Positions 28,945 through 49,170 of a stretch of DNA of 64,000 nucleotides are shown here, in pieces. Made by a program: the position numbers and the translations under genes. The DNA comes from a virus, in IMG/VR virus record IMGVR_UViG_3300047335_000017, positions 1-64,000 of that record. One strand, 5' to 3'. Under the pieces are notes generated by a model, which saw nothing but the letters and a program-made list of their open reading frames with translations, was not told the origin of the DNA and searched no databases. The stretch's first letter is position 1; each line of letters begins with the position of its first letter.

Positions 28945-28959
28945 GTTACAGACTGTAAC
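28945..28959. promoter_or_regulatory. GTTAC-N5-GTAAC palindrome, site 1
   Basis: GTTACAGACTGTAAC. Arms extend to CGGGTTACA/TGTAACCCG (28942-28962). It lies 30 nt upstream of the -35 of the early promoter. Confidence 0.7.
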
Positions 28960-28988
28960 CCGCATAACTCATTGATATCTCAGACGAT

Positions 28989-29017
28989 TTGACAGAAACA
29001 AATACCTATGCTATTGT
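28989..29017 (+). promoter_or_regulatory. sigma70-type early promoter
   Basis: TTGACA-17 nt-TATTGT, about 50 nt upstream of the first plus-strand gene. Confidence 0.5.
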
Positions 29018-29067
29018 TTGGTTAGTTGATTGATTGTCAGTCAACGAACAAAGAAAGACTTACTCAC

Positions 29068-29796
29068 ATGGACAACAAGAAAGCCTCTAAGCCCGCTTCC
29101 ATTCTGGTTTCCGACGACGTGAGCGTTGCTCCGATCCAAGCGAAGCCTGAGAGCAATCCAGGCGTTGGCCACAATTCGAGAACCGTTGCGCCGAACATGG
29201 TTCGGCTCGCGATCAATGAAGATGACAACCATATCGCTATGGTGGCGTTGATCAAGGCGGAGGGCGAGTCTCGCGACGATGAGAGCTTGGCTAGTCTCTC
29301 AATGGACTATCGCGTTGGCAAGATGATGAACGCTATGGGAATGAGCGAGGCGATCGCGAGAGCGACGCTACGCAAGGGGAAGTTCATTACCCTCCCTAAC
29401 GCAGACAACGGCGAACGCATGAGCTTAAAAGAGACGCGCATTGACGGCGCGGCGCGAACTGGCTGGTCACGCTTGTTGGATCGCGCGTTCGGAAAGAAGG
29501 AACCGGCGACTAAGACAGATGAGGAGATTGCGGAAGCCAAGGCGAAGAAGATCGAAGCGGCGAAGAAATTGCTCAAGGGAATTTCGACGGAAGCCACCGC
29601 TCCCAAGGCCGCGCCGATCACAGTGGCTTCCCTCATCGTCGAACGTGCCACCACAAAGGATGATGTTGTGAACCACGTGAGCGCGCTTCTTTCCCACATA
29701 CGAGCGTACCAGAAACAAAATGCCAAGCTTTTTATTGGTGATGAGGGCGCGGCTGTTATGGCTTGGCTTCTCGAAGCGCCGAGCTTTGGGAAATAA
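29068..29796 (+). CDS. first early protein, function unknown
   Basis: ATG at 29068 (MDNKKASKPAS...) within the track ORF 29026..29796. It is followed by a palindrome and an intrinsic terminator. Confidence 0.6.
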   Translation: MDNKKASKPASILVSDDVSVAPIQAKPESNPGVGHNSRTVAPNMVRLAINEDDNHIAMVALIKAEGESRDDESLASLSMDYRVGKMMNAMGMSEAIARATLRKGKFITLPNADNGERMSLKETRIDGAARTGWSRLLDRAFGKKEPATKTDEEIAEAKAKKIEAAKKLLKGISTEATAPKAAPITVASLIVERATTKDDVVNHVSALLSHIRAYQKQNAKLFIGDEGAAVMAWLLEAPSFGK

Positions 29797-29811
29797 CTAA
29801 CAACTTCCCAG

Positions 29812-29826
29812 GTTACAATCTGTAAC
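29812..29826. promoter_or_regulatory. GTTAC-N5-GTAAC palindrome, site 2
   Basis: GTTACAATCTGTAAC with 11-bp arms CCCAGGTTACA/TGTAACCTGGG (29807-29831), 11 nt after the stop codon. Confidence 0.7.
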
Positions 29827-29849
29827 CTGGGATTTATTTTATCATACAG

Positions 29850-29877
29850 CCCACGTCCTCGCGACGTGGGTTTTTTT
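29850..29877 (+). terminator. intrinsic terminator
   Basis: CCCACGTC-CTCGC-GACGTGGG followed by TTTTTTT. Confidence 0.7.
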
Positions 29878-30455: not shown

Positions 30456-31226
30456 ATGCGTCCAGGCAAAATTAGAGACCATTGGGTTGATCGTCCCTGC
30501 TATCCGCCCAACAAGCGTCGAGGCGGAAATTTACCACGCAAGCTCATGGACCCTCGCGATCCCACGATCCTATGGACTGAGGACGATCAAGCGTGGGCCG
30601 TTGGCGAGGGTCTATTCATTGCGCGCTCGTGGCAGACCGAGCGAGTGATCCTGGTTACACTGAGTAACAAGCTAGGTTTTCTAGACATCACTGATCCTGA
30701 GAAACGCCAACTCGCTATGTTGGAGCACATTCAACGTCGAGTGCTTTGGTGCGACCCAATGTACGATAAGCTTCTATGGTTTATCGAGCAACAAGATCGC
30801 GAAGGCTATTACCACGCCTGGATGCCTCACATCCGAGAGCGTGATCCAGAACTAGTTTGGTATAAACGATGGTACGCGCGCAAGCGCGCGGCTCACGGCG
30901 TTCACACGATCTATTATGGCGAGCGCATCGAACGAGAGCGTGAACGGAGGCGGAAGATATCCGAAGCCGCCAAGCGGCCAAAGCCAGGGCTGGGATGCCC
31001 AGCGAGCGCTCTAGCGCCGGCTACGGTGGCCTTCCTGCAACGCTCCCAAGCCTTGGCTGCTGGCGAGCTTCTACAGCGCCAGGAAGAGCGCTCGCGTCGA
31101 GAGGCCAAGGATCGCGAGTTGGCCGAGCGCGATGCGGTGTTCAGGCGCAAGGAAGCAAACAAGCGATACTATGAGAAGCGCAAGCAGGCGATGGCCCGCG
31201 CCCGAGCGCTAGGCCAAGCGCGCTAA
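30456..31226 (+). CDS. early protein, function unknown (basic helical C-terminus)
   Basis: ATG at 30456 lies 8 nt after GGAG. 256 aa, with an Arg/Lys/Glu-rich C-terminal third. Confidence 0.55.
   Translation: MRPGKIRDHWVDRPCYPPNKRRGGNLPRKLMDPRDPTILWTEDDQAWAVGEGLFIARSWQTERVILVTLSNKLGFLDITDPEKRQLAMLEHIQRRVLWCDPMYDKLLWFIEQQDREGYYHAWMPHIRERDPELVWYKRWYARKRAAHGVHTIYYGERIERERERRRKISEAAKRPKPGLGCPASALAPATVAFLQRSQALAAGELLQRQEERSRREAKDRELAERDAVFRRKEANKRYYEKRKQAMARARALGQAR
30654..30668. promoter_or_regulatory. GTTAC-N5-GTAAC palindrome, site 3 (intragenic, relaxed)
   Basis: GTTACACTGAGTAAC inside 30456..31226. Confidence 0.45.
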
Positions 31227-31276
31227 AAGAGCGAGACGGCGAAACTCTAATCGCATCTCTCGACCAAATCTCTCGC

Positions 31277-31305
31277 TTGACAAGAACATTATTCTGGTGT
31301 ATAAT
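31277..31305 (+). promoter_or_regulatory. consensus sigma70 promoter
   Basis: TTGACA-17 nt-TATAAT, a perfect match to both hexamers, in the gap after 30456..31226. Confidence 0.65.
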
Positions 31306-31352
31306 AATAGCTTGGCTGGATGGGTAAGTGATCCAGTCGAACTCACTCACGT

Positions 31353-31367
31353 GTTACAGGATGTAAC
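31353..31367. promoter_or_regulatory. GTTAC-N5-GTAAC palindrome, site 4
   Basis: GTTACAGGATGTAAC, about 40-55 nt downstream of the predicted start site of the consensus promoter. Confidence 0.7.
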
Positions 31368-31499: not shown

Positions 31500-31754
31500 A
31501 TGTCCCGTCTTTCCCAACTCTTGCGCGAGATCGAGATGCGACAGATCGAAAACGCGCGGCGCGAAGCGCTCGCGCAAGAGAGTCGTGCTTGGCTCTCGGG
31601 CATCGTCGAAGCCGTGCCTGTTACGAGATGTAACCCGGCGCAAAGCGCTGATGACCCGCTCGCCTTGGATTACGAACATCGTCCTCTCACAACCAACTAT
31701 CTGATCTCCCAGAGAGACCAGATCGGCGTAACCCGAGCGAAGCGAGGAAAGTAA
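31500..31754 (+). CDS. small early protein, function unknown
   Basis: ATG at 31500 lies 9 nt after GGAGG. 84 aa. Confidence 0.45.
   Translation: MSRLSQLLREIEMRQIENARREALAQESRAWLSGIVEAVPVTRCNPAQSADDPLALDYEHRPLTTNYLISQRDQIGVTRAKRGK
31620..31634. promoter_or_regulatory. GTTAC-N5-GTAAC palindrome, site 5 (intragenic, relaxed)
   Basis: GTTACGAGATGTAAC inside 31500..31754. Confidence 0.45.
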
Positions 31755-31755
31755 G

Positions 31756-31848: not shown

Positions 31849-31863
31849 GTTACAATCTGTAAC
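31849..31863. promoter_or_regulatory. GTTAC-N5-GTAAC palindrome, site 6
   Basis: GTTACAATCTGTAAC (GGTTACA/TGTAACC), 52 nt upstream of the ATG at 31916. Confidence 0.7.
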
Positions 31864-31915: not shown

Positions 31916-33052
31916 ATGGAGAAACAAACGATGCATTCTTGCGAACCCAACTTCCCAAGCATCCGCTCATACGCCGAAGCCAACGAGTTCCTGGCCAAAG
32001 CCAAGCCGTTCCCCGAAACCAAGGGAGAAGGCGAGACTCATCCGCGTCGGCTCGAGGCCACGCGCAAGCGCCACATGAGCATTCGCCTTCTCGCGCCGCA
32101 TGAGCTCGAGAAGGTCTACGTCGAGACTTTCGGCGAGAAGGGATACGATAAGCGCGTTCACACCGATCAATCGCGCCTCAACCTCGAGGCGAACAAGGGC
32201 CTGAGGCATATCGCGTTCAAGCTCTACTCCACCGATGTGGTCGTATGGCGCGAAGACGAGACGGTGATCTTCGATCCCCACGTGTCGAAATCGACGAACG
32301 CTTTCGTCCGCAATTGCACGCCCCATGGCTTGCTGACGCATTGGGAAGATCGGGCCTGCCTCGTGGGCTGCTTCACGGGCAAGCGCAAGCCCTACAAGTG
32401 GTCCACCGAGACCTATCCCACGTTCGATCGCTATTACCGGGTGGCCCCGAGCGCTCGCGCGGCTTTTAAGCGTGGCCCAGCAGTCCATGAGACCGCCGGG
32501 CGAAGCCTCGGCGCAAGAGGGAGACCGAAGGGCTCGGGCCAGGAGGGAGGGGGAGAGGAAGCCTACTGGTGGCCGTTGGGCGGTATCGAGCCCTGGGATA
32601 GCCTCCAGGTCGATCGGAAGGCAGCCAGGGCTGCCCTGAGAGCCCATGGCTGGCACGACTTCGAGCTTTGGGCCATCGGCTATTGCACCATGACGAAGCG
32701 CAACTACAAGGCCAAGGCCAAGGGGAGGCTAGAGACGAGCGAGATCATGGAAATCCTCGAGGATCGCGAGAAGTGGCCCATCATGGCCAGCTCGGATTGG
32801 CCCGACATGCCCGATGAATTCTATCGGGGCCATGGCTTCGGCGCGCTCCACAATGACAACCTCGTCGAGAGGATGGCCAACGATCCGCTGTACATCAACA
32901 AGCTTCATGCGCGGCGTCTCGCGCAGCGAGTGAAACTCGCGATCTACGAGAAAGAGAGATGTGTTACAATCTGTAACCGGGACTTCCTACCGTCCTATGC
33001 GGCGGTGAAGTCTCACTTCGCTTCGCATGAGAAGTATAGTTGGAGGGTTTGA
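31916..33052 (+). CDS. early protein, function unknown, with an in-frame repeat-element copy
   Basis: ATG at 31916 (MEKQTMHSCEPNF...), 378 aa. It contains the element at 32491-32540 and palindrome site 7. Confidence 0.55.
   Translation: MEKQTMHSCEPNFPSIRSYAEANEFLAKAKPFPETKGEGETHPRRLEATRKRHMSIRLLAPHELEKVYVETFGEKGYDKRVHTDQSRLNLEANKGLRHIAFKLYSTDVVVWREDETVIFDPHVSKSTNAFVRNCTPHGLLTHWEDRACLVGCFTGKRKPYKWSTETYPTFDRYYRVAPSARAAFKRGPAVHETAGRSLGARGRPKGSGQEGGGEEAYWWPLGGIEPWDSLQVDRKAARAALRAHGWHDFELWAIGYCTMTKRNYKAKAKGRLETSEIMEILEDREKWPIMASSDWPDMPDEFYRGHGFGALHNDNLVERMANDPLYINKLHARRLAQRVKLAIYEKERCVTICNRDFLPSYAAVKSHFASHEKYSWRV
32491..32540. repeat. GC-hairpin element copy inside an ORF
   Basis: GACCGCCGGGCGAAGCCTCGGCGCAAGAGGGAGACCGAAGGGCTCGGGCC, read in frame as TAGRSLGARGRPKGSG. 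Confidence 0.8.
32963..32977. promoter_or_regulatory. GTTAC-N5-GTAAC palindrome, site 7 (intragenic)
   Basis: GTTACAATCTGTAAC, encoding ..CVTICN.. near the 3' end of 31916..33052. Confidence 0.6.
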
Positions 33053-34119: not shown

Positions 34120-34290
34120 ACTCCCCCTTGGCCCGAGACTTTCCTCTTGCGCCGAGGCTTCGCCCGGCGGTTTGGATTTGCCCGGCGCGAAGGGCTCGGG
34201 AGTTACATCCTGTAACACACTCCCCCTTGGCCCGAGCCCTTCGGGCCGGACGTCACCTGAAAAACGCGCGGCGCAAAGCGCTCGCGCAAA
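34120..34290. repeat. two GC-hairpin elements in opposite orientation flanking a GTTACA palindrome (nested arrangement)
   Basis: The 18-bp direct repeat ACTCCCCCTTGGCCCGAG occurs at 34120-34137 and 34219-34236. An inverted element lies at about 34141-34200 and a forward element at 34219-34290, whose right hairpin is GCGCGGCGC-AAA-GCGC[T]CGCGC. Confidence 0.85.
34202..34216. promoter_or_regulatory. GTTAC-N5-GTAAC palindrome, site 8
   Basis: GTTACATCCTGTAAC, sandwiched between the two repeat elements. Confidence 0.7.
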
Positions 34291-34312: not shown

Positions 34313-35392
34313 ATGCGCAAGCTTACGATAGCCCAGATGCAGGAAGCCGTCACGCAACTCGTCATCCGCATGAACAAGCGGGTGATCTTCAAAGGAAGAT
34401 TTGGTATCGGCAAGAGCGCGGGGATCAACCTCGCGGCTGCCGCTCTCAATTCCCCCGAGGCGCTGAAGGCGCTCTTGGGTGACGACTGCCCCTACGTGGG
34501 CTGCCAAGTGATCGACATTCGCTTGGGACAGTACGATAGCGTGGACTTGCGGGGCTTCCCGCATCCCGACAAGGCTAGCGGCACGGCGATCTGGTATCCA
34601 CCGGCTACGTTTCCCTTCATCGGGAACGACAACTTCCGATCCGACATTCTCTACCTCGTGTTCCTCGACGAGTTCACGTCGGCGAGCACCGCGGTGTTCG
34701 CGGTCTGCTATCAGTTGATCCTGGACAATTGCATCGGCGAGCATGTCGTGATGGACAACGTTCGCATCTGCATGGCTGGCAACCTGGATGACGACAAGGG
34801 CGTCGTCAACAAGATACCCATGCCTCTCTACAATCGCATGGTCCAGTTCGAGGTTGTGAACCCCAAGGACGACTTCTGCTTCCATGCGCAAGCCGTAGGC
34901 ATCCCGCCGATGTTCATCGCTCTATGGAACTTCAAGGAGAACCTGATCAACACCTACGATCCCAAGAGCACGGCCACCGTGGTTGCGACGCAGAGATCGT
35001 GGTTCGAAGCAGTGAGCATCTTCCAGGACGTCAAGCTGACCTACGATCTGAAAGAAGCCGCCATGGTTGGCTGCATCGGCGAAGGTCCGACAACCGAGAC
35101 CATGGCCTTCAATGAGATATGGAAGACGCTGATACCGATCAAGGAAATCATCAAGGACCCCGAGAGCGTGGCGCTACCTACTGAACCGTCGCTCAAGTTC
35201 GCGATGGCGATGCACATTTCGGGCAACATGACGCCCAAGAACATAGGTCAGCTCTACAAGTACCTCGTGCGCATGCCGCCCGAGTTCGTGGTTATGAGTT
35301 GGCAGCTTGCCACAGAGCGAGATAAGAACCTGTTCAATGTTCCCGCGTTCATCGACTACATGAAGCGTTACCGGGATGTCTATACGAACTGA
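34313..35392 (+). CDS. MoxR-like AAA+ ATPase
   Basis: 359 aa with Walker A GRFGIGKS and Walker B LVFLDEF. Overall it resembles AAA_5/MoxR ATPases, which are usually paired with VWA proteins. Confidence 0.7.
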   Translation: MRKLTIAQMQEAVTQLVIRMNKRVIFKGRFGIGKSAGINLAAAALNSPEALKALLGDDCPYVGCQVIDIRLGQYDSVDLRGFPHPDKASGTAIWYPPATFPFIGNDNFRSDILYLVFLDEFTSASTAVFAVCYQLILDNCIGEHVVMDNVRICMAGNLDDDKGVVNKIPMPLYNRMVQFEVVNPKDDFCFHAQAVGIPPMFIALWNFKENLINTYDPKSTATVVATQRSWFEAVSIFQDVKLTYDLKEAAMVGCIGEGPTTETMAFNEIWKTLIPIKEIIKDPESVALPTEPSLKFAMAMHISGNMTPKNIGQLYKYLVRMPPEFVVMSWQLATERDKNLFNVPAFIDYMKRYRDVYTN

Positions 35393-35415
35393 GCATCACT
35401 GTTGACTTGACCAGT

Positions 35416-35430
35416 GTTACATGATGTAAC
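35416..35430. promoter_or_regulatory. GTTAC-N5-GTAAC palindrome, site 9
   Basis: GTTACATGATGTAAC with 11-bp arms CCAGTGTTACA/TGTAACACTGG (35411-35435). It ends 28 nt before the ATG at 35458. TTGACT lies at 35402-35407. Confidence 0.7.
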
Positions 35431-35457
35431 ACTGGTCTCACTTATGGAGTATCACTT

Positions 35458-36027
35458 ATGTTAGACGAAAGCAAGGAAGCCAAGAGCAAGCGCCTCAAGG
35501 CGGAACGCGACGCGCGCTACAAAGCCAAGAAAAAAAGCTCCCAGGCTTCGATCGGCAAAGCGCTTCGCCGATCGAAGCCTTTCGACGCGCCACTTCCCCC
35601 CATCCACATGCCGCCGCCCATCCCTGGCTTCGGCAACATCACGAAGGGGCTGCCTCCCAGGACGCCCGAGGACGAAGTGACCTACTCCGACATCCCCGGC
35701 GTCACGGCCTACGACGTGTACGACGAGGACGAGCCGATCATCGTGCGCCAACCCAAGGTGGCCCCGCCCAGGCTGCCTAAAGCCCCAAAGCAGCCGGCGC
35801 GAAGCGCTCGGCCCAAGCCGGAAGGCATGACCATGGTCATGTCCCGCACCTACCAGCGCGAGGGCAAGGTGGCTGGCGGCACGGCGGTGCGCGGCAACGC
35901 GAAGCAGCTCTCGGTCATGTTCCCGAACAAGCTCTTCGACAAGCTCGCGGCGCTGGCGCGGAAACAGGGCATCTCGTGCGGCGAGCAAGTGAGACAGCTT
36001 GTCGTGAAGCTCTTGGAGGACGCCTGA
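35458..36027 (+). CDS. basic protein with a C-terminal ribbon-helix-helix-like DNA-binding domain
   Basis: 189 aa with a Lys/Arg/Pro-rich N-terminal part. The C-terminal LSVMFPNKLFDKLAALARKQGISCGEQVRQLVVKLLE fits a beta-alpha-alpha (CopG/Arc) pattern. Confidence 0.5.
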   Translation: MLDESKEAKSKRLKAERDARYKAKKKSSQASIGKALRRSKPFDAPLPPIHMPPPIPGFGNITKGLPPRTPEDEVTYSDIPGVTAYDVYDEDEPIIVRQPKVAPPRLPKAPKQPARSARPKPEGMTMVMSRTYQREGKVAGGTAVRGNAKQLSVMFPNKLFDKLAALARKQGISCGEQVRQLVVKLLEDA

Positions 36028-36281
36028 TGCCTGACTCCCCCATGCCGAACCTGAAAACCGAGAGCGAGAACTTCGCATGGACCGTCGTTGCGATGGGTGG
36101 CCTTCAGATGAAAATCGTGCCTGTTCGCGAGGACATGAGGATCAGGTTCTTCGGCGGGAGGCGGGACATCACTACACAGATCGCGTCGTTCGTTCGACGC
36201 GGCTTCATTCAGGTCAATGTTACACATGGTGACAGGCTAGTTGTCGTGAAGCCCGACGAGCCTGGATGGCAGAAGAACTAA
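36027..36281 (+). CDS. small hypothetical protein
   Basis: ATG at 36027 overlaps the upstream stop (ATGA coupling). 84 aa. Confidence 0.5.
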   Translation: MPDSPMPNLKTESENFAWTVVAMGGLQMKIVPVREDMRIRFFGGRRDITTQIASFVRRGFIQVNVTHGDRLVVVKPDEPGWQKN

Positions 36282-38367: not shown

Positions 38368-38382
38368 GTTACATCGTGTAAC
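38368..38382. promoter_or_regulatory. GTTAC-N5-GTAAC palindrome, site 10
   Basis: GTTACATCGTGTAAC. It ends 27 nt before the ATG at 38409, with AGGAG in between. Confidence 0.7.
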
Positions 38383-40069: not shown

Positions 40070-40082
40070 TCTACTCCATCGT

Positions 40083-40097
40083 GTTACACGATGTAAC
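40083..40097. promoter_or_regulatory. GTTAC-N5-GTAAC palindrome, site 11
   Basis: GTTACACGATGTAAC with arms CGTGTTACA/TGTAACACG (40080-40100), followed by GTTTTTT. It ends 24 nt before the ATG at 40121. Confidence 0.7.
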
Positions 40098-40120
40098 ACG
40101 GTTTTTTATGAGGACCACTG

Positions 40121-40759
40121 ATGACGCAATTATGTGCCCAAACCATACGTGTAATGTGCGAAGCTCCAGGATGGCACGCGCCAAGACACAAAAGCGAGCG
40201 GCTTCCCCTGATTTCTCCCTTCGAGCTCGAGAAGCTCATCATCAACGGCTCCAGCGCAGGCCTCTCGTCGGCCTCCTACGACATCCGCATCGGCTACGAC
40301 CTGACCTTGGGTCCGAACCCCATGGCTGTCTTCGAGCAGATGATGAAGGCTTCCAACACGGGCCTGCAAGCCATCGAGCACGCCCAGGAGCTTATCAAGG
40401 TCAGACCCTCCTACAGGTCGCTGGCGCACTCGCTGGAGACCTTCGCCATCCCCGATGACGTGGTGGCCTACGTCGTCGACAAGTCGACCTACGCGCGCCG
40501 CTTCATGAGCGCCTTCAATACCCTGTTCGACCCTGGGTTCGTCGGCACGGCGACGTTGGAGCTGGTCAACCTCGGCAGCGAGACCATCATCATAGAAGCC
40601 GGCGATCCGATATGCCAAGTTGCATTTCATTTCCTCGATCAACCGACCGATCGACCCTACTCTGGAAAATACAGTCATCAGCCCGCGCGAGCTGTTGGCG
40701 CTAGAAGTGAGCGTGCGGACGGAACTTTCATTGAAGCCGGGGTTTATCCCGAAGCATGA
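40121..40759 (+). CDS. dCTP deaminase / dUTPase-superfamily enzyme
   Basis: 212 aa. SASYDIRIG ... FDPGFVGTATLELVNLGSETIIIEAGDPICQVAF ... YSGKYSHQ matches the Dcd/Dut beta-barrel signature. Confidence 0.65.
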   Translation: MTQLCAQTIRVMCEAPGWHAPRHKSERLPLISPFELEKLIINGSSAGLSSASYDIRIGYDLTLGPNPMAVFEQMMKASNTGLQAIEHAQELIKVRPSYRSLAHSLETFAIPDDVVAYVVDKSTYARRFMSAFNTLFDPGFVGTATLELVNLGSETIIIEAGDPICQVAFHFLDQPTDRPYSGKYSHQPARAVGARSERADGTFIEAGVYPEA

Positions 40760-41313: not shown

Positions 41314-44169
41314 ATGTGGGACTATAGAGATTACGCCTCGTTCGACTTTGAAACGTCGGGCACGCTCCCCGAGTACGCGCTCCAACCATGGCGCGTCGCG
41401 CAAGGCAAAGCGTGGCCGACATCACTTGTCTGGTTATGGAATGAGGATGGACATGGCCGTCATGACGGAGGACTATTCCCTACCAGAAAACTGGTTCGAA
41501 CTATGCTTGAATGGGCGCTGGACGAGAGACGCATCCTCGTGGGATGGAACACTGTTTTCGACATCTCGTGGCTTTACGCCCTCGCGCCCGAGAGACTTGT
41601 TAACGAGTGCCGATTTCTGGATGCAATGCTTCTCTGGCGACATCTCGATATCGAGCCTGAGTACGACGAGAGCGGGCGGACCAAGCGCTCCTACTCGCTT
41701 AAAGTTGCCTTCCCCGAGTTCTATCCCGAGCACGCCGGATACGAGCAAGAAATCGACTATCACTCAACCGATCCCGACGAGCTGCGAAAGCTGCACGAGT
41801 ACAACGTCCTGGATTGCGCCTTCACCCTTAGGCTCGCCAAGAGGTTCTGGGAAGGGCTGAAGTCCAAACAGCAGTCGACGGCTGTCGTGGAGGCGCGCTG
41901 CCTGAACATGGTGGGGCAGGCGAACCTCGAAGGGCTGATCATCGATCCCCTGGAGGTTGCGCAACTCTCGGCCAGCCTGAAGGTCACGGCGGCGAAGAAG
42001 CTCAAGTCGCTCGCGCCGCACGGGATCAGCGAAGAGGTTGTCCGATCGCCGGCCAAGCTCAGTAAAGTGATGTTCGACGATTGGAAGCTACCAGTTTACA
42101 GAGAGAACGAAAGCAAGAAGACTGGTAAGGTTTCCAGGTCCACGGATAAAGAAACTCTCCACGAGTTGTCGTTCATTGATCCACGCGCCAAAGAACTGCG
42201 TGAGTACCGCGAGGCCTTGAACACTGATACAAAGTTCGCGATGGCCCCAATCGCGGCGTGCGCATACAACGAGGACGGTAAGGCGCATCCCCTCGCGCGT
42301 GTGTTCGGAACCTATTCGGGCCGGATGACCTACAGCTCGAAGCAAGGCAAGAACAAGGACGAACGCCAGATCGGGTTCGCCCTGCACCAGGAAAAGCGCG
42401 AGGCGGCCTTCAGGCGCATCGTCGTGCCACCGCTGGGTTACACGCTCGTGGAGTTCGATGCCGCCGGCCAGGAGTTCAAGCTCATGGCGATCGCCAGCAA
42501 GGACCCTGTGATGCTCCAGCTTTGCCAGCCAGGGGAGGACGCGCACTCGTTCATGGGGGCCAGGGTTCTGAAGCGCGACTATGCCTGGGTCATGCAGCAC
42601 AAGGACAGTGATCCCATCGCCAAGAACGGCAGGAAATCTGGCAAGGTAGCTAATTTGTGCTGTAGTCATTCTTCTCCTATCTTGACAGACCGAGGGCATG
42701 TCGCCATACAGGACGTGCGATGCGACGACCTCATATGGGATGGGATCGAGTTCGTCGCACACGACGGTGTGGTGTTCAGCGGCGTGCGCGAAGTTGTCAC
42801 TCATGACGGGGTGACGGCGACGCCTGAACACCTTGTTCTCGTCAATCAAGAGTGGGTGCGTCTTGACGAAGCAAAAAGAAATGGTTGGAGCATCCAGTCC
42901 TCACGTCGGTCAACGCTTCGGATTGTGGACGGTATTGTCGCCCGAGTTAGAAAAACGTTCTGGCGAGAAATATGTGCGGTGTGCGTGTGTATGCGGAACC
43001 GTGGCATGGGTGCTTTACTCCAACGCGGTATGGGGAAAGTCGCAGGGATGCAGGAGTTGTGCGGTCAGAATACGACACGCTCGGGCTGGGCATCACATCA
43101 ACCAAACCTCGGTGGATCGAGCGCTGCAACAGAGGACAGCCAACTGGTTCTCTCGGTGCTCGAACCCGAACGATGGATCGTGGTGCAACTACGGCGCGCG
43201 TGGGATCGAGTGTCGGTTTACTTCGGTCAAGGAGGCGGTGGAGTACGTCAAGGCGACGCTGCCGCACCCGACCTATCAGGGACTAGATATAGATCGGATC
43301 GACAACGATGGGCATTACGAGCCGGGCAACCTCCGGTTGGTCACACGCAAGGTGAACCTGTTGAACAAGCGTGGTTCCAACATGGTTATATGGAAGGGGG
43401 AATTGATTACGACGCAAAGCTGGGCCGAAAGCCCATACTCGTTGACCTGTACGATGCGCTATGCGGCGCAAGGGCTTTCTGGCGAAGCTATCCTGCGCCG
43501 CGCCCACGAAGCCGTAGTGAAGAAACGCAAAGGCTGGCGCAAGATCGAAGCGAAGCTCCGGTCTACGACATTGTGAACTGTGGGCCTCGATCGCGCTTCT
43601 CTGCGAACGGTCGGATCGTTCACAACTCACTGATGTATAGAACGAGCGCCCCGAGACTTAGATCAACCGCGCGCGTCGACTACGGCATGCCAATGACCAT
43701 GGATGAAGCACGCTACATCAGGAAGACTTATCTACAATCATATAAGCGCGTCCCTGTATATTGGAGTGAGCAGATAATGCGCACTCGGCAGTTAGGTTAT
43801 GTCGAGACGTTCGCTGGCCGGCGCGTGAAAGTCCAAGGTGATTGGCAGGGGAACTTCGCTTGGAACATGGGCTCGACTGCCATCAACTATCGTATCCAAG
43901 GGACTGGCGCTGACCAGAAATATCTGGCACTCATGATGCTTGCCGATTACCTTTCCGAGATCGGCGCGCGGTTCGCTTTGGATTTCCACGACGGCCTGTA
44001 TTTCTACGTGCCGGACGAGAAGGTTTATGACATGGTGCACCACACGAAGGATGTTCTTGACAACCTTCCTTATGAAGCGGTGTGGAAATTCAAGATGCCG
44101 ATACCCCTGACGTGGGACGCGAAAATTGGCCCTTCGTGGGGAGACCTCAAACCTTACGAGTTTAAGTAG
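41314..44169 (+). CDS. family-A DNA polymerase with 3'-5' exonuclease domain, interrupted by an intein
   Basis: Exo motifs are FDFETSG, WNTVFD and YNVLD. Pol motif A is LVEFDAAGQEFKLMA. Motif B is split as RKSGKVANL | intein | SLMYRTS. Motif C is LDFHDGLYFYV. The frame is open over all 951 codons. Confidence 0.85.
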   Translation: MWDYRDYASFDFETSGTLPEYALQPWRVAQGKAWPTSLVWLWNEDGHGRHDGGLFPTRKLVRTMLEWALDERRILVGWNTVFDISWLYALAPERLVNECRFLDAMLLWRHLDIEPEYDESGRTKRSYSLKVAFPEFYPEHAGYEQEIDYHSTDPDELRKLHEYNVLDCAFTLRLAKRFWEGLKSKQQSTAVVEARCLNMVGQANLEGLIIDPLEVAQLSASLKVTAAKKLKSLAPHGISEEVVRSPAKLSKVMFDDWKLPVYRENESKKTGKVSRSTDKETLHELSFIDPRAKELREYREALNTDTKFAMAPIAACAYNEDGKAHPLARVFGTYSGRMTYSSKQGKNKDERQIGFALHQEKREAAFRRIVVPPLGYTLVEFDAAGQEFKLMAIASKDPVMLQLCQPGEDAHSFMGARVLKRDYAWVMQHKDSDPIAKNGRKSGKVANLCCSHSSPILTDRGHVAIQDVRCDDLIWDGIEFVAHDGVVFSGVREVVTHDGVTATPEHLVLVNQEWVRLDEAKRNGWSIQSSRRSTLRIVDGIVARVRKTFWREICAVCVCMRNRGMGALLQRGMGKVAGMQELCGQNTTRSGWASHQPNLGGSSAATEDSQLVLSVLEPERWIVVQLRRAWDRVSVYFGQGGGGVRQGDAAAPDLSGTRYRSDRQRWALRAGQPPVGHTQGEPVEQAWFQHGYMEGGIDYDAKLGRKPILVDLYDALCGARAFWRSYPAPRPRSRSEETQRLAQDRSEAPVYDIVNCGPRSRFSANGRIVHNSLMYRTSAPRLRSTARVDYGMPMTMDEARYIRKTYLQSYKRVPVYWSEQIMRTRQLGYVETFAGRRVKVQGDWQGNFAWNMGSTAINYRIQGTGADQKYLALMMLADYLSEIGARFALDFHDGLYFYVPDEKVYDMVHHTKDVLDNLPYEAVWKFKMPIPLTWDAKIGPSWGDLKPYEFK
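42658..43626 (+). mobile_element. intein (323 codons) inserted in polymerase motif B
   Basis: The N-terminal Cys codon is at 42658 (CCSHSSPILTDRGHVAIQDV, block A), with a TxxH block (TATPEH). C-terminal blocks are VYDIVNCG..FSANGRIVHN, followed by the +1 Ser at 43627. Confidence 0.7.
42833..43576 (+). CDS. HNH-like homing endonuclease paralog 3, nested inside the intein in the +1 frame relative to the polymerase
   Basis: 247-aa ORF (a possible start is also the MVGASS ATG at 42881). GQRFGLWTV..CACVCG..CRSC...WFSRCSNPND..YGARGIE...GLDIDRIDNDGHYEPGNLRLVT is homologous to 37398..37961 and 38409..38870. Confidence 0.6.
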   Translation: MFSSIKSGCVLTKQKEMVGASSPHVGQRFGLWTVLSPELEKRSGEKYVRCACVCGTVAWVLYSNAVWGKSQGCRSCAVRIRHARAGHHINQTSVDRALQQRTANWFSRCSNPNDGSWCNYGARGIECRFTSVKEAVEYVKATLPHPTYQGLDIDRIDNDGHYEPGNLRLVTRKVNLLNKRGSNMVIWKGELITTQSWAESPYSLTCTMRYAAQGLSGEAILRRAHEAVVKKRKGWRKIEAKLRSTTL

Positions 44170-44983: not shown

Positions 44984-44998
44984 GTTACATCCTGTAAC
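44984..44998. promoter_or_regulatory. GTTAC-N5-GTAAC palindrome, site 12
   Basis: GTTACATCCTGTAAC, directly followed by TCAGGAG and the start at 45011/45014. Confidence 0.7.
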
Positions 44999-45010: not shown

Positions 45011-45694
45011 TTGATGTTTGTCTATCGACTAACCAAGTGCCCGAACTTCACGTTGGCCTCAGTACCGTTCGACGTGATGCGAAACAAGATGCTCAATGTT
45101 CCCGCGATGAAGCTCGTCGGCTACTCGCCTACCGCGCTCGACGAAGACAAGAAACTATTCTTCGACACGATCAAGCTGATCGGCTGGAACGGCTCGAAGG
45201 GCGGCGAGCTGATGTGCTACGCCGTCCCATACCCTCACACCTTCAACGTCGGCTTTCTTCTCCAGAACGGGACGAACCCGGCGGTGTTCGTCGGCTATCC
45301 GTTCCCCTTGGATTACCTCAACGAGGAAGCCGATGACCGCACCGACAGCATGGAAAAGGCCCGCACGATCGCAGCCATGCAAGGCAAGGACACCGAGCCC
45401 TACGGATCGGCAGCGCCCATATCCCATGCCGATTGGAGGCGCAGCTACAAGGGCAATATGTGGACCACGATCGAGGGGACGAACTGCGTCGTGCTCCCTG
45501 AAGGCAGCGGCTTCAGGGCGCTGCTGCGCGGCGGCGGAACGAACACGATCACTTCCAAGGTGTTCCCTACAGAAGCGGAAGTGATAGCTTATGTCATGAA
45601 CAACTATCGAAACTTGATCAAGCCATGGCTGATGGGAAGAATGAATGCCGTCGCAAGCGCAGACCTCTTCATCGAAGACGACACAGACGATTGA
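45011..45694 (+). CDS. hypothetical protein
   Basis: 227-aa ORF (TTG at 45011 or ATG at 45014), with AGGAG 5-8 nt upstream. Confidence 0.55.
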   Translation: MMFVYRLTKCPNFTLASVPFDVMRNKMLNVPAMKLVGYSPTALDEDKKLFFDTIKLIGWNGSKGGELMCYAVPYPHTFNVGFLLQNGTNPAVFVGYPFPLDYLNEEADDRTDSMEKARTIAAMQGKDTEPYGSAAPISHADWRRSYKGNMWTTIEGTNCVVLPEGSGFRALLRGGGTNTITSKVFPTEAEVIAYVMNNYRNLIKPWLMGRMNAVASADLFIEDDTDD

Positions 45695-46468: not shown

Positions 46469-46477
46469 GGATCAACC

Positions 46478-47128
46478 ATGAACGCGCAACCTGACATTCA
46501 ATACATCTCTTCATCCAAGCAGATTGGTGGCATCGACGAGCTGATCGTCGACGCTTACAACAAGCTGCTCGAAGAGAACCATAATCTCAAGAGCATTATG
46601 TCTTCGATCAATAAGCAGGGCACGGTTCAAGCCATGGAAGTGAAGCCATCTTCCTCGCAACGGGAGCAGGAACTTCTGGAAAAGAACGTCGAGCTGGAGA
46701 CCGAGCTTCGTGAAGCGAACAACAAGAACCAGGGCACGCCCAACCAGTTCACTGACCTGGACGTGTTCGCGAGAGACGCCTCTACATGGGTGGGCGACAC
46801 GTTCGGGTTCAAGTGCATGGCTTCAGGTCGGGAGCGCGCTCTGCGTTTCCTGGAGGAAGCTATGGAGCTAGCCCAGGCGTGCGATCTTAGCAAAGCCGAC
46901 ACGGCAGCCATGATGGATTACGTCTACAGTCGGCCGCCGGGAGCCGTCCCCGACGAGATCGGCGGTGTCCTCATGACGTTGGCCCCCCTGAGCGTGACAT
47001 TCGACGTGAAGCTTGGCTGGCTCGCTCGCAGGGTGCTCAACTCCTGCTGGGATCGACAAGCGCAAATCAGCCAGAAGCACTGGAACAAGCCCGCGCATCT
47101 GCTGGCCGTGTTCAAGTATAATCTCTGA
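46478..47128 (+). CDS. hypothetical protein with a possible MazG-like C-terminal domain
   Basis: 216 aa with an N-terminal coiled coil. The C-terminal RALRFLEEAMELAQA ... EIGGVLMTL resembles MazG-type pyrophosphohydrolase helices (weak match). Confidence 0.4.
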   Translation: MNAQPDIQYISSSKQIGGIDELIVDAYNKLLEENHNLKSIMSSINKQGTVQAMEVKPSSSQREQELLEKNVELETELREANNKNQGTPNQFTDLDVFARDASTWVGDTFGFKCMASGRERALRFLEEAMELAQACDLSKADTAAMMDYVYSRPPGAVPDEIGGVLMTLAPLSVTFDVKLGWLARRVLNSCWDRQAQISQKHWNKPAHLLAVFKYNL

Positions 47129-47352
47129 TGCGCTGGCTGCTATGGCGCTGGGGAACGCGAGGGTCTTCCCCGGCAATTCTCACGATCCAATCCTTGGATC
47201 AACACGATCGCGGCACGGCCCTCGGCCAACCCATCCTTCTAAAGCCGGAAGAAGAGAACCTTCCCTTCAGCGATCTCGTGAAACTCTATCCGCCTCCAAC
47301 CAACCAAGAGTTTCCTGATCACGTGAGCAAACCAAGAAAGAGTGCTGACTGA
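47128..47352 (+). CDS. possible small protein
   Basis: 74-aa ORF whose start and stop both overlap neighbouring genes (ATGA at both ends). The composition is only moderately protein-like. Confidence 0.35.
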   Translation: MRWLLWRWGTRGSSPAILTIQSLDQHDRGTALGQPILLKPEEENLPFSDLVKLYPPPTNQEFPDHVSKPRKSAD

Positions 47353-48035
47353 TGACTACTCCATTGGCTTGGAGCCCGAGTTCTATTGAGACATTCGTGA
47401 ACTGCCCACGCCAGTATCATGGAAAATACGTCCTCAAGAAGTTCCCTCGCGAAGAGCAAAGTCCTGAACAGGTCTACGGTGAGGAAGCCCACAAGCACTT
47501 CGAGAACAGGCAGGCCCATGGAACCGAGTTGCCAGAGGACTTGGCCGTTCACGAGCCCTTCATGAAGCGGCTGGACGCACTGCCCGGCATGACGTTCGTG
47601 GAGAACAAGGTCGCCCTAACCAAGAAGCTCGAAGCCGTCTCATGGGACTGGCGGCGGGATGAGATTTGGTTCAGGGGGATCATCGATTTCAAGAAAGTCG
47701 ACGATGAAAGCAAGCGCGCTTGGATCGTCGACTACAAAACAGGTAGGCCGCATCAGAAGCTCAGACAACTGGTCATCTATGCGATCCACACATTCATCGC
47801 CCATCCGAATGTCGATCTGATTGACGCGAGGTTCTACTGGACGAAGGACGGCACGAACACCCGCAAGGTGTGGGACCGCACCGAGCTGGAGGGCCTGTGG
47901 GGCACGATCATTGGCGATCTACGCCAGTACAAGGAAGCCTTCAAGACGAACATCTGGCAGCCGCGCCCCTCCGGGCTCTGCGCTGGCTGGTGCCCGGATA
48001 CGGACTGTGAATATTGGAAATCAAAGAGGAAGTGA
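47352..48035 (+). CDS. PD-(D/E)XK nuclease, Cas4/RecB-like with a Cys cluster
   Basis: 227 aa with GIIDFKKV...WIVDYKTG (D..DxK). One N-terminal Cys (NCPRQY) plus C-terminal CAGWCPDTDC match the four-Cys Fe-S arrangement of Cas4-type nucleases. Confidence 0.7.
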   Translation: MTTPLAWSPSSIETFVNCPRQYHGKYVLKKFPREEQSPEQVYGEEAHKHFENRQAHGTELPEDLAVHEPFMKRLDALPGMTFVENKVALTKKLEAVSWDWRRDEIWFRGIIDFKKVDDESKRAWIVDYKTGRPHQKLRQLVIYAIHTFIAHPNVDLIDARFYWTKDGTNTRKVWDRTELEGLWGTIIGDLRQYKEAFKTNIWQPRPSGLCAGWCPDTDCEYWKSKRK

Positions 48036-48322
48036 TGCGCAAGAAAGAGAGCGAACTCGATCGCTTCGGGCGCGGACCTCAGGGTCCGTTCCCGTGGCGC
48101 AACGCTCGCCAGATCGGCGGCGTTCAATCAAACCTTCAGGGCGCGATCAACCAGTGTACCGACGGCGCGTATGTTACACTGGACATCAAAGTCGCGCACA
48201 ATCTGATCGATATATGTCGTCAAGCTAAACATACGGAGACCAATCATGAAGAACAAGAAGCTCCCGCGAACCGCAAGCGAGAACGAGAGCGGGCTAAAGA
48301 AGAGGGTCAAGCGTCTTCTTGA
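48035..48322 (+). CDS. possible small protein
   Basis: ATG at 48035 overlaps the upstream stop. The 3' end overlaps the VRR-NUC gene by 77 nt. Confidence 0.3.
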   Translation: MRKKESELDRFGRGPQGPFPWRNARQIGGVQSNLQGAINQCTDGAYVTLDIKVAHNLIDICRQAKHTETNHEEQEAPANRKRERERAKEEGQASS

Positions 48323-48737
48323 TGACCATGACTGGTTCTATTGGATGCCGCCGGCCAATGGCTACGGGGCGACAGGGATCAGTGATATACACGCTACATG
48401 GAACAGCGTGTTCATGGCTATCGAGACCAAGCTGTCCCGCAACAAGGTCACGCCGATGCAGGCCGCGTTCCTCAACTCGATCCGGGCGACGGGGCATTTC
48501 GCGTTCGTCGTGGACGAGAACAACATCGATTGGCTTTGGACGTTCCTCCAGGACTTGGCGGATACGACGCGGGAGGCCACCCATGGGCGCTCGCCGCATC
48601 CCGAGATCGGGGCGCGTATGCTCAACGCCATCGCGGCGCTGACCGCGCGCATCCCGGCCACCGACATTCAGGTGAAGCGGGATGTCGTGCATCCAGCGCT
48701 TCACCAAACCTTCGCAGAAGATGAAGACCATGAATAA
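48246..48737 (+). CDS. VRR-NUC domain nuclease
   Basis: 163 aa. ESGLKKRVKRLL ... GISDIH ... FMAIETK ... MQAAFL fits the VRR-NUC (PD-(D/E)XK-type) pattern. GGAG lies upstream. Confidence 0.6.
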   Translation: MKNKKLPRTASENESGLKKRVKRLLDDHDWFYWMPPANGYGATGISDIHATWNSVFMAIETKLSRNKVTPMQAAFLNSIRATGHFAFVVDENNIDWLWTFLQDLADTTREATHGRSPHPEIGARMLNAIAALTARIPATDIQVKRDVVHPALHQTFAEDEDHE

Positions 48738-49170
48738 AATTCTCGCCTTGTTTATGCTTATCACGCAGCAAGCTCATGCGCAGGATGCGGCGATCGGCGA
48801 CAGCATCGCCTTCGGCGTAGGGCAGGCGCTCCATGTCCCCACGCAAGCCTGGGTAGGGGCTTCGAGTTGCTACGTGTTACATCATGTAACACATGAGTTC
48901 TATCGTTATGTCGTTGTGAGCGCAGGCATAAATGACCCTCCAGGCCCTTGCGTCCGCGAGCTTCTTCGGTCTATCGTGGCTCAGCGCATCGTAGTCATTC
49001 TGCCCGCCCCTATCAACTCGGCGAGAGCCAATGTTGCTAGGCAAGCAATCGCAAGAGGGGCGGATACGATCGCTTATGATTGCCGGGGTGGGTGTAATGC
49101 TCACAACTTCCACCCCGGCAGTTATGCCGTGCTTGCTCAGAGGGTGCGCGAAATATGGTCGACACCCTGA
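48721..49170 (+). CDS. secreted SGNH/GDSL-type hydrolase
   Basis: MKTMNKILALFMLITQQAHA looks like a signal peptide. Then come IGDSIAFG (block I), SAGINDP (block III, GxND) and NFHPG (block V-like). Confidence 0.5.
   Translation: MKTMNKILALFMLITQQAHAQDAAIGDSIAFGVGQALHVPTQAWVGASSCYVLHHVTHEFYRYVVVSAGINDPPGPCVRELLRSIVAQRIVVILPAPINSARANVARQAIARGADTIAYDCRGGCNAHNFHPGSYAVLAQRVREIWSTP
48876..48890. promoter_or_regulatory. GTTAC-N5-GTAAC palindrome, site 13 (intragenic)
   Basis: GTTACATCATGTAAC (GTGTTACA/TGTAACAC) inside the SGNH hydrolase gene, encoding ..YVLHHVTH.. Confidence 0.6.

Follow-up and report, generated by a model that had tools for sequence, protein, structure and literature searches.

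A multi-copy palindrome at early and middle gene junctions of an uncharacterised phage is a putative docking site for a gene regulator

Why should one short palindrome punctuate the early and middle genes of a phage? The question arises from the window analysed here, a stretch of 64,000 nt (IMGVR_UViG_3300047335_000017) that is the near-complete genome of an uncharacterised phage. The phage is novel and looks virulent, with no integrase or repressor found in it. Its early promoters are consensus sigma70 promoters, and it carries N4-like ATPase/vWA genes together with replication-module genes common to N4-like phages. The copies of the palindrome, which are unstranded, and the features around them are as follows.

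28945..28959, unstranded: motif copy GTTACAGACTGTAAC, a perfect palindrome over 28942-28962; the -35 element of the first early promoter begins 29 bp downstream
28989..29017, + strand: first early sigma70-type promoter, P1, TTGACA-17-TATTGT
29068..29796, + strand: gene 1, encoding an orphan 242-aa helical protein
29812..29826, unstranded: motif copy 16 nt past the gene 1 stop, with 12-bp arms (29806-29832), then TTTATTTTAT; RNA hairpin of -19.6 kcal/mol
29848..29872, + strand: canonical intrinsic terminator, a GC-rich stem plus TTTTTTT, just past copy 29812
30654..30668, unstranded: one-mismatch variant GTTACACTGAGTAAC, within gene 30456-31226
31277..31305, + strand: perfect sigma70 promoter of the P2 type, TTGACA-17-TATAAT, with a 5ʹ leader hairpin and, beyond it, the motif downstream
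31353..31367, unstranded: motif copy in the leader of promoter 31277-31305; hairpin of only -3.7 kcal/mol, z=+0.5
31620..31634, unstranded: one-mismatch variant GTTACGAGATGTAAC, within ORF 31500-31754
31849..31863, unstranded: intergenic motif copy; gene 31931-33052 starts 67 nt on
32963..32977, unstranded: perfect motif copy within coding sequence (conserved 3ʹ part of gene 31931-33052), encoding CVTICN; the L001 orthologue is without a copy at that place
34202..34216, unstranded: motif copy upstream of the N4 gp24-like AAA ATPase gene 34313-35392
35416..35430, unstranded: motif copy with 13-bp arms (35409-35437), -20.4 kcal/mol; TTGACT lies 8 nt upstream and the Arc-like RHH gene 27 nt downstream
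35458..36027, + strand: 189-aa protein with a C-terminal Arc-like ribbon-helix-helix (RHH) domain
38368..38382, unstranded: motif copy; HNH endonuclease gene 38409-38870 starts 26 nt on
40083..40097, unstranded: motif copy within the stem 40078-40102; dCTP deaminase-like gene 40121-40759 starts 23 nt downstream
44984..44998, unstranded: motif copy 4 nt past a stop codon; a Shine-Dalgarno sequence begins 3 nt downstream and gene 45014-45694 starts 15 nt on
48876..48890, unstranded: motif copy in the gap 48737-49155
59657..59671, unstranded: one-mismatch variant GTTACTTCCTGTAAC, within minus-strand gene 58018-59886

All 14 copies of GTTAC-N5-GTAAC, 11 of them in the stricter form GTTACA-N3-TGTAAC, lie where the original prediction had placed them, thirteen being inside 28945-48890. 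There were 0 copies in 100 dinucleotide-preserving shuffles. The motif family is sharply bounded, since a search allowing 2 mismatches added a single site, at 36219; within the genome, 11 copies are perfect and 3 have one mismatch. Half-sites on their own are as frequent as background, and N5 is the sole half-site spacing to be enriched. Of the 11 strict copies, ten fall between genes, as compared with an intergenic share of 16.6% for 28945-48890 (p=1.5e-7), and the 28-kb late arm holds 0 strict copies. Whether the variant at 59657 belongs to the functional set is uncertain. The distances from copies to start codons had been given correctly, that of copy 44984 to within 3 nt. As also predicted, the first early gene lies between copies 28945 and 29812, and copy 31353 lies in the leader of a consensus promoter, at about +41. 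These data support a regulatory element tied to early and middle gene starts.

Does the palindrome simply end or stabilise transcripts? Plain intrinsic terminators or attenuators, or REP-like stabiliser palindromes, would need no specific factor and would suit the intergenic placement. Two copies (29806-29832 and 40078-40102) are called terminator-like, and the T-tract claimed for the second is present, with TTTTTT directly after the stem. Nonetheless, T-tracts accompany only 2 of the 14 copies, so the suggestion of a leaky terminator fails as a general reading. The core is weak and AT-rich, and the downstream flank is A-rich in relatives because it belongs to the palindrome. An element selected only for structure would drift site by site, whereas each genome uses one shared sequence that changes in concert between lineages. 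We find this explanation scarcely credible.

A scan of related phages, as had been suggested, revealed the element in syntenic metagenomic relatives at the same gene junctions, each lineage having its own version: GTTACA-N3-TGTAAC, GTTAGA-N3-TCTAAC, GTGACA-N2-TGTCAC or AGGACA-N3-TGTCCT. The junction before the ATPase gene, represented here by copy 34202, has a lineage-specific copy in every relative examined. Both arms differ together between lineages at orthologous junctions, and mismatched intermediates are absent. Across 73 sites, pairing holds in 82% of cells (65% in shuffles). The sites reach a covariation score of 0.386; shuffled sites give 0.116, and 0 of 500 shuffles scored as high.

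These lineage differences could instead be host differences, if the palindromes bound a global transcription factor of each host. The CRP-family consensus is TGTGA-N6-TCACA, and the version in the L004 lineage, TGTGACACCTGTCACA, matches it. Moreover, the motif could be tied to no phage protein, and the L006-type lineage keeps the core without the RHH protein. On the other hand, we know of no bacterial regulator whose consensus is TGTTACA-N3-TGTAACA or TAGGACA-N3-TGTCCTA, and the uniformity of the copies within the genome is far above that usual for host regulon sites. A host-factor site is improbable.

Judging from sequence, the palindrome most probably serves as a docking site for a regulator that recognises it by sequence and controls early gene expression; this regulator is most likely phage-encoded and co-evolving with its site. 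We tentatively favour a stoperator-like multi-copy operator, at which duplex DNA would be read by a symmetric (dimeric or tetrameric) regulator. This reading is favoured by the number of copies where 0 are expected, by their intergenic bias and the late arm without strict copies, and by the lineage-specific arms that change in concert. It is also favoured by geometry: the 5-bp half-sites GTTAC and GTAAC, each a GTnAC palindrome in its own right, have centres 10 bp apart, or one helical turn. A further point in its favour is proximity to strong sigma70 promoters. Copies are located 28–41 bp past the starts of strong early promoters of the host-sigma70 type, in the short gaps between early and middle cistrons, and directly before the first early promoter; among 12 strong sigma70 promoters in the loci, 7 have the element at +28 to +41 and a further 3 have it overlapping or just upstream.

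We propose that the core read by the regulator is GTTACA-N3-TGTAAC, and that the full half-site would be ~9 bp and TTTGTTACA-like, with lineage-specific substitutions. As the regulator accumulated, host RNA polymerase might be blocked or modulated along the whole 20-kb early/middle arm by a stoperator-like roadblock; the late arm, being without the motif, would stay untouched. Some observations argue against the operator reading. A position of +28 to +41 is unusual for a classical repressor, and the spacer of the L004 lineage, 2 bp rather than 3, is awkward for a fixed dimer geometry.

The centre of the palindrome varies freely among orthologous sites. Its sole bias is dyad-symmetric, Y-S-R: the first position is a pyrimidine at 55 of 69 sites, the second is G or C at 53 of 69, and the third is a purine at 56 of 69. 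Two identical subunits, each reading GTTACAY, would yield such a pattern. Invariant arms around a free, dyad-biased centre are at least as compatible with a dimeric DNA-binding site as with a hairpin. Position -2 is G in 10 of 11 sites, which is plain conservation of a base rather than covariation.

To what extent does the palindrome act as a hairpin? The original prediction leaned towards a hairpin or cruciform, with flanks that extend the pairing differently at different sites. Extended, site-specific stems do occur, but only at a subset of sites: at least 3 extra pairs are present at 12 of 57 sites across relatives, as compared with 3.6% in controls (permutation p<2e-4). The extensions comprise 3–7 extra base pairs and are not conserved, with T-tracts at only 2–3 of them, and the outer pairs of the element are 77–88% paired. 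Stability is uneven. Hairpin energies range from -3.7 to -20.4 kcal/mol; several copies are very stable (z -4.6 to -6.5), 3 of 11 are either marginal, at -3.7 to -3.9 kcal/mol, or lose to a competing fold, and the folding of copies 31353 and 32963 shows no advantage over shuffles. The conserved property is sequence, not hairpin stability. The window has no excess over chance of other 6+3+6 palindromes, with 0 compensatory variants of the motif among them, and G-U pairs are not favoured over A-C (12 vs 14). This invariance of sequence despite variable stability, with no preference for G-U and no compensatory variants, again favours the operator. Nonetheless, a protein reading duplex DNA would not select for flank pairing, so hairpin or cruciform formation matters at some copies at least. 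The stem extensions suggest that some copies also serve as hairpins after transcription, and a role as an RNA or DNA hairpin, supported by the site-specific complementary flanks, is possible if somewhat doubtful.

An element that acts at the RNA level would be a transcribed stem-loop, in 5ʹ leaders and between cistrons, recognised by its sequence by an RNA-binding protein or endoribonuclease; a phage or host factor would thereby set translation, processing or stability of an early/middle mRNA regulon. The lower-stem extensions and the very stable copies speak for this, and a conserved upper stem with a free lower stem is the typical layout of a protein-binding hairpin. Copies in 5ʹ leaders (+28 to +41) and copies 2–28 nt before Shine-Dalgarno sequences are equally suited to post-transcriptional control, and the transcribed early/middle arm holds all copies except one variant. 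The 2-nt centre of the L004 lineage is also easily accommodated: were the closing pair to open, the loop would have 4 nt. However, RNA-binding proteins usually read loops or bulges, and the loop here is unconstrained; sequence-specific recognition of six regular A-form base pairs is rare, and an RNA loop gives no reason for the dyad symmetry of the centre. The marginal hairpins, the intolerance of G-U and the lack of compensatory variants also weigh against it. In all 5 relatives with a readable first early promoter (L005, L006, L007, L078 and L079), one copy lies upstream of that promoter. Neither RNA-binding nor RNase domains turned up, and Rfam gives no match. We consider an RNA-level element unlikely.

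The element could itself be an N4-like hairpin or cruciform promoter, used by a phage or virion RNA polymerase that has escaped recognition; every early and middle gene would then have a separate phage promoter behind the host ones. N4 virion RNA polymerase promoters are likewise small inverted repeats upstream of early genes, with a stem of 5–7 bp or more and a 3-nt loop (PMC4496689). In both, the upper stem is conserved and the base is variable, as in the stem extensions of N4 P1-P3. The phage shares N4-type ATPase/vWA genes and has a 2752-aa ORF in its virion arm, and the element lies directly before ribosome-binding sites, at times in tandem behind a sigma70 promoter. However, searches of Pfam, PHROGs and NCBIfam and a sequence search of PDB detected no RNA polymerase, and the giant ORF has an HExxH peptidase motif and no Rx3Kx6-8YG motif B. 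N4 relies on an RNA polymerase that is injected, and its promoters must have a G:C closing pair, a G-N-A loop whose middle base is a purine, and specific -11/-10/-8 bases; they number about three (PMC4496689). Here those base requirements are broken, the closing pair being A:T and the centre C or G about equally, and 11–14 copies span 20 kb rather than about three at one genome end. Where Shine-Dalgarno sequences begin 1–3 nt after the element, transcription starting past the hairpin would also truncate them. The suggestion of a hairpin promoter is very improbable.

The multi-copy operator that we favour has a close parallel in the stoperators of Cluster A mycobacteriophages (sites for an immunity repressor of the L5 gp71 type), where a single short, conserved site also recurs many times through the genome, in promoters and short intergenic gaps. 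Stoperators have site and protein specificities that diverge between related phages, and in L5 are proposed to stop initiation and elongation (PMC9283540, PMC6550527). They differ in being asymmetric 13-mers, bound by a monomer and oriented with transcription, whereas the element here is a perfect palindrome; they come from temperate phages in which an HTH repressor can be recognised, and no cognate protein could be assigned here. The conserved inverted repeats (CIRs) of the Streptomyces phage phiC31 are reportedly bound by the c repressor and are likewise said to be highly conserved palindromic operators repeated in the intergenic early region. By contrast, phiC31 is reportedly temperate, with a defined repressor gene and early promoters that are not of the sigma70 type, and its CIRs have no sequence or protein relationship to the present element. 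Lambda-type nut sites also place a short hairpin, the N-bound boxB, in an early leader tens of nucleotides past the start. With boxB, it is the loop that is conserved and recognised, and each operon has one site, whereas the loop here is free and copies number 11–14.

Which protein might bind the palindrome? The operator reading is favoured by the Arc-like RHH protein encoded in the arm, and by the lack of any RNA polymerase, sigma factor or RNA-binding domain among the scanned proteins. GTnAC half-sites about one helical turn apart would suit two RHH dimers, as at Arc/Mnt/CopG-type operators, although known RHH regulators act at one or a few promoters, which their sites overlap, and the 11–14 sites here are dispersed and mostly do not overlap promoters. 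N-terminally, the RHH protein is basic and of low complexity. Of the 6 genomes that encode it, 5 have a motif copy with arms of at least 10 bp directly before its gene. The original prediction named this protein as a candidate; it is indeed Arc-like, but it was not found in loci L006, L129, L110 and L115, which jointly cover the early/middle arm of the L006-type lineage, a lineage that keeps the same core. Nor does its beta-strand track motif class (QATLTF with GTGACA-N2, QATVSF with GTTAGA-N3). It is a doubtful candidate for the motif binder. By position only, the product of gene 1 is a candidate trans-acting factor: the gene lies between two motif copies in every lineage.

A pattern count in the window bore out the original prediction copy for copy and position for position: GTTAC-N5-GTAAC occurs 14 times, and the stricter GTTACA-N3-TGTAAC 11 times. 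The motif did not occur in any of 100 dinucleotide-preserving shuffles, which speaks against a compositional artefact. The family is sharply bounded: tolerating two mismatches adds one site only, at 36219. Spacings other than N5 were tested and none is enriched, and isolated half-sites are as frequent in the window as other hexamers of the same composition. Each copy has a core of a 6-bp stem and a 3-nt centre, with some copies extended to 7–13 bp. Thirteen copies are dispersed across 20 kb. Our own gene calls place 10 of the 11 strict copies between genes, in a region of which 16.6% is intergenic (p = 1.5e-7). Most copies lie in short gaps between cistrons, typically ending 2–28 nt before a Shine-Dalgarno sequence. 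One perfect copy, at 32963, lies inside conserved coding sequence, and the orthologue in a related phage (locus L001) has no copy there. We conclude that the palindrome is genuine: a cis-regulatory element of the early/middle regulon in a new phage clade, lineage-specific and co-evolving, and a member of no described family. It marks that regulon precisely, and is a handle for finding the regulator by DNA or RNA pull-down.

The case for co-evolution comes from syntenic metagenomic loci of related phages, which were reached through homologues of the DNA polymerase and the ATPase, with further loci from a DNA pattern scan of viral contigs. One relative is part of a Silvimonas assembly. The scan of relatives suggested with the original prediction was informative: a multi-copy palindrome is present in every relative down to ~44% ATPase identity, with 4–11 copies per locus. 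The copies occupy the same junctions, namely upstream of the ATPase gene and of the 286-aa gene, flanking the first early gene (gene 1, 29068–29796) on each side, and elsewhere, and their 3ʹ flank is A-rich. The element is absent from a more distant relative, L131 (ATPase 41% identical), whose frequent palindromes are coding repeats. Its sequence differs between lineages, as follows.

Versions of the palindrome in the window and in sampled loci of related phages (L numbers)
Window: nGK-GTTACA-N3-TGTAAC-MCn
L001: CT-GTTACA-N3-TGTAAC-AG
L002/L005: TT-GTTACA-N3-TGTAAC-AA
L006, L129, L020, L106, L110, L115: GGT-GTTACA-N3-TGTAAC-ACC
L130: TTT-GTTAGA-N3-TCTAAC-AAA
L004: TTT-GTGACA-CC-TGTCAC-AAA
L007: TTT-AGGACA-N3-TGTCCT-AAA

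Four core pairs change on both sides between lineages, with zero unpaired cells at those pairs in 73 aligned sites. Over the same 73 sites, pairing holds in 82% of cells (65% in shuffles), and covariation scores 0.386, compared with 0.116 (0 of 500 shuffles as high). Because the core was chosen for being palindromic, pairing is tested independently only by the outer six pairs; those nearest the core are paired in 77–88% of sites, and the outermost three fall to 42–52%. This natural series of co-varying sites offers a means to study how a multi-site regulator and at least 12 targets shift specificity together.

The window is nearly all of a 64.5-kb metagenomic contig. A megablast search for a close relative among 50,697 phage records gave no match, and a scan of viral contigs with the DNA polymerase as query found nothing; hundreds of homologues of this polymerase are present in metagenomes. 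The genome is laid out as follows.

836–28435, minus strand: arm encoding terminase, portal, capsid, SU10-type adaptor, a 2752-aa protein and a GH108 lysin
8559–16817, minus strand: the 2752-aa ORF of the virion arm; no Pfam or PDB match, one short PHROG hit
28989–29017 and 31277–31305: sigma70 consensus promoters
29068–57009, plus strand: arm of early and replication functions
57047–63487, minus strand: second minus-strand block

Products of the plus-strand arm include an AAA ATPase, a DUF2201/vWA protein, a family A DNA polymerase, an SNF2 helicase and a primase-helicase; for the first two, the best matches among isolated phages are N4-like. Searches of nearly all ORFs against Pfam, PHROGs and NCBIfam revealed no RNA polymerase, sigma factor, integrase or repressor. 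Given this and the consensus sigma70 promoters, transcription of the phage apparently depends on host RNA polymerase. The element would supply the cis-regulatory code for a clade of abundant, uncultured phages of roughly 60–65 kb, which joins N4-like replication genes with apparently complete dependence on host RNA polymerase.

Several other features of this genome were observed. The DNA polymerase (41314–44169) has 951 aa, relatives having roughly 630 aa; it carries an insert of ~340 aa, with phrog_26005 at residues 448–528, and the polymerase of L129 is divided between two genes. An HNH endonuclease gene (38409–38870; phrog_3377, E = 1e-53) lies between the copy at 38368 and a conserved 287-aa gene; L001 and L005 lack it at that junction, and it probably arrived as a mobile insertion. 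Positions 53719–54066 encode a MazZ-like dATP/dGTP diphosphohydrolase N-terminal domain (E = 5e-30), and 40121–40759 a dCTP deaminase-like protein. By eye, the product of 49363–50061, for which Pfam gave no match, has FAGGAG and DPPY motifs, which are typical of N6-adenine methyltransferases. These three proteins hint at nucleotide-pool or DNA modification functions. The closest isolate is Pseudomonas phage Rollin (OR577172.1; L008/L009), with a portal 37% identical. Rollin has five copies, in both orientations, of a different palindrome, AAAAGGTAG-N7-CTACCTTTT, at 5–493 and 61266–61282; these are confined to ~600 bp of a divergent control region rather than dispersed.

What reads the element? 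Our best reading, which is tentative, sees an operator in many copies, bound by a symmetric DNA-binding regulator; a candidate regulator of this kind would block or tune host RNA polymerase along the arm. What is constant is the sequence of both arms and not stability: folded as RNA, the hairpins are predicted to span -3.7 kcal/mol (z = +0.5) to -20.4 kcal/mol. In the window, 6+3+6 palindromes other than the motif occur at chance (26, with 19.5 expected), and none of them is a compensatory variant of it. A preference for G-U over A-C, sought as a signature of RNA, is not seen at the first mismatch (12 and 14, respectively). The 3-nt centre differs freely among orthologous sites, with 21 different triplets in 69 sites, and its only bias is dyad-symmetric: Y in 55, S in 53 and R in 56 of the 69 at positions 1, 2 and 3. 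Accordingly, TCG (14 sites) is accompanied by its reverse complement CGA (9), and TGA (11) by TCA (4). Strand asymmetry of the centre, considered as another test for RNA, is weak and unstable (p = 0.025, 69 sites), and the symmetric signal dominates. The half-site centres are one helical turn apart. Constancy of arm sequence, palindromes at chance level, G-U parity, the symmetric centre and the helical-turn spacing favour recognition as duplex DNA.

The main rival, which we consider unlikely, is an RNA-hairpin regulon, the sole model that accounts for site-specific extensions of the stem. The flank covariation described in the original prediction is confined to a subset, 12 of 57 sites across relatives, where at least 3 bp are complementary beyond the lineage consensus; cross-paired flanks give a baseline of 3.6% (permutation p < 2e-4). 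Examples are the 13-bp arms at 35409–35437 and the 12-bp arms at 29806–29832. Such site-specific complementary flanks favour a structural, hairpin role. Only 2–3 of the 12 sites with extended flanks have T-tracts, so these are not simply terminators. It is a speculation that template-switch “perfection” of quasi-palindromes could yield the extensions without selection. More broadly, it is possible, if doubtful, that the element is no duplex operator but a hairpin read as single-stranded nucleic acid by an unrecognisable phage protein, either as an RNA stem-loop regulon or as an extruded DNA hairpin. As RNA, one conserved hairpin before a dozen early/middle genes may be bound or cut by a phage protein; as DNA, the extruded hairpin may serve a cryptic polymerase. 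If true, this would add a new class to phage control at the post-transcriptional or transcriptional level, an unusual phage-wide use of RNA or DNA hairpins in which the stem sequence co-evolves across a whole uncultured clade. Rfam covariance models gave no match at E ≤ 1 on either strand of 28000–50000, and CsrA-type loops were rejected, with GGA in a few copies only.

The N4-like hairpin promoter is highly improbable, and the hairpin-type promoter that had been proposed is not upheld. The geometry of the N4 hairpin (5–7-bp stem, 3-nt loop) is shared by the element. However, the N4 vRNAP promoter has a G:C loop-closing pair, a loop with 5ʹG and 3ʹA, and -11A/G, -10G and -8G (PMC4496689), whereas here A:T closes the loop in 63 of 73 sites and, among 69 sites, 42 have T at loop position 1, while the central base is G in 31 and C in 22. 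N4 copies are few and clustered at the early genome end, whereas thirteen are spread over 20 kb here. No polymerase was found to read such a promoter: the 2752-aa ORF has no polymerase match in PHROG, Pfam or PDB, and polymerase motif B is absent from its sequence. It has an HExxH motif near residue 1517, long coiled-coil stretches and a 2184-aa counterpart in phage Rollin; judging by its sequence, it is probably an ejected polyvalent protein rather than a polymerase. Plain terminators are the least probable reading. Intrinsic (Rho-independent) terminators have a GC-rich stem followed directly by a T/U tract, whereas most copies lack one; the leaky terminator originally suggested therefore does not apply generally, a T-tract being present at just two window copies (29806–29832 and 40078–40102).

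By analogy, our best reading is that the element would be functionally closest to the CIRs of phiC31, a functional analogue, and to the stoperators of Cluster A mycobacteriophages, likewise many copies of one short site in promoters and short intergenic gaps. It differs from the stoperators in being palindromic, and it occurs in a virulent-looking phage, with a regulator protein that is a candidate only. The stoperator is an asymmetric 13-mer, bound by a monomer and oriented along transcription (PMC9283540), whereas this site is a perfect palindrome whose centre bias is purely dyad-symmetric. Stoperator phages are temperate, with an HTH immunity repressor that, once bound, is proposed to stop RNA polymerase during elongation; here, neither a repressor-like HTH protein nor an integrase was found in almost all ORFs (Pfam, PHROGs, NCBIfam). 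Lambda-type nut/boxB has a conserved loop read by an arginine-rich antiterminator at one site per early operon, whereas here the loop is free and there are 11–14 copies per genome. T7-type RNase III sites are irregular duplexes of ~two helical turns, whereas most stems here are 6–9 bp and two reach 12–13 bp. The Acinetobacter UmuDAb SOS box, which contains GTAAC, was rejected on its different architecture.

Among 12 strong TTGACA-17-TATAnT promoters in oriented loci, seven are followed by the element, which begins at +28 to +41 relative to the inferred start site, usually with a separate 5ʹ leader hairpin between promoter and element; at three more, it overlaps the promoter or lies just upstream. 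At the first early promoter, one copy lies 3–29 bp upstream of the -35, with no helical phasing to it, in the window and in the five relatives where this promoter is readable (L005, L006, L007, L078 and L079). This copy would argue for action at the DNA level. It may be transcribed, given a weak conserved promoter-like sequence, TTGGTA-17-AAGAAT, upstream of it (L006, L078). A role in promoter recognition by host RNA polymerase, whether replacing the -35 or as a class II activator site, was ruled out: start codons lie 13–28 nt past the element, which would put transcription initiation beyond the Shine-Dalgarno, and ~85% of copies have no recognisable sigma70-like promoter nearby or at a fixed distance. 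A sigma-dependent pause site or -10 mimic was also rejected, since TGTAAC, TGTCAC and TGTCCT all lack -11 A.

The RHH protein (35458–36027), originally put forward as a possible binder, combines a basic low-complexity N-terminal part with a C-terminal domain. A profile of that domain, built with its orthologues, matches Arc repressor best (E = 0.011–0.08), the alignment spanning strand, helix A and helix B, and in five of the six genomes that have the gene, a copy whose arms reach 10 bp or more lies before it. The RHH assignment stands. As in an RHH (Arc/MetJ/CopG) repressor-operator pair, the protein is encoded nearby; unlike in such a pair, protein and operator do not co-occur and co-vary across relatives. 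The gene is absent from L006, L129, L110 and L115, which together span the early/middle arm of the L006-type lineage and all keep GTTACA-N3-TGTAAC. L130 has no copy before its RHH gene, and the DNA-facing beta-strand residues are not cleanly sorted by motif class. These observations argue against the RHH protein as the general binder. A homologue search with the short RHH domain as query gave no matches.

Alone among the early genes, gene 1 has a copy on either side in the window, L005, L006 and L007. As the regulator it is a candidate by position at most, and it remains an orphan: it has eight homologue clusters among 1.8 billion representatives, its profile matches nothing in PDB or Pfam, and its mostly helical AlphaFold model (mean pLDDT 67) gave no Foldseek match at E ≤ 0.001. 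A site for a host factor is quite improbable. The L004 version is identical to TGTGA-N6-TCACA, the CRP-family consensus; against this, we know of no regulator whose site the other versions match.

Further repeats and palindromes accompany the element. In the spacer of strong early promoters there is a second palindrome, AGAACAATGTTCT (L001 3336–3348) or AGAACATTATTCT (window 31283–31295), which may be an operator for another factor; in these promoters a stable 5ʹ leader hairpin precedes the motif. In the divergent region, adjoining an HTH-bearing 144-aa gene and the terminase gene, 28591–28740 holds iteron-like direct repeats with a common TAATTACCCG: AAAAATCTAATTACCCGATTTTTT three times, the third diverging after TAATTACCCG, then three exact 28-nt units, TAATTACCCGCCGTGTACGAAGCGATTT. 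They are a possible packaging site or origin. Another perfect palindrome, of 21 bp and distinct from the motif (TGTCTGTCTG-T-CAGACAGACA), is found at 28860–28880, 65 bp upstream of the copy at 28945. In L005, CCAA repeat runs (ccaaccaaccaacc...) at 7383–7415 and 8428–8455 lie directly 3ʹ of three motif variants with an A-A closing pair, GTTACA-NNN-AGTAAC. The stretch after gene 1 in L006 (1880–2650) looks like a replication origin flanked by the element: two strong terminators are followed by a (GCCAGGGC)n tandem repeat, then by a pair of motif copies spaced 50 bp apart, an AT-rich segment containing iteron-like TTGTGCC repeats, and a further motif copy.
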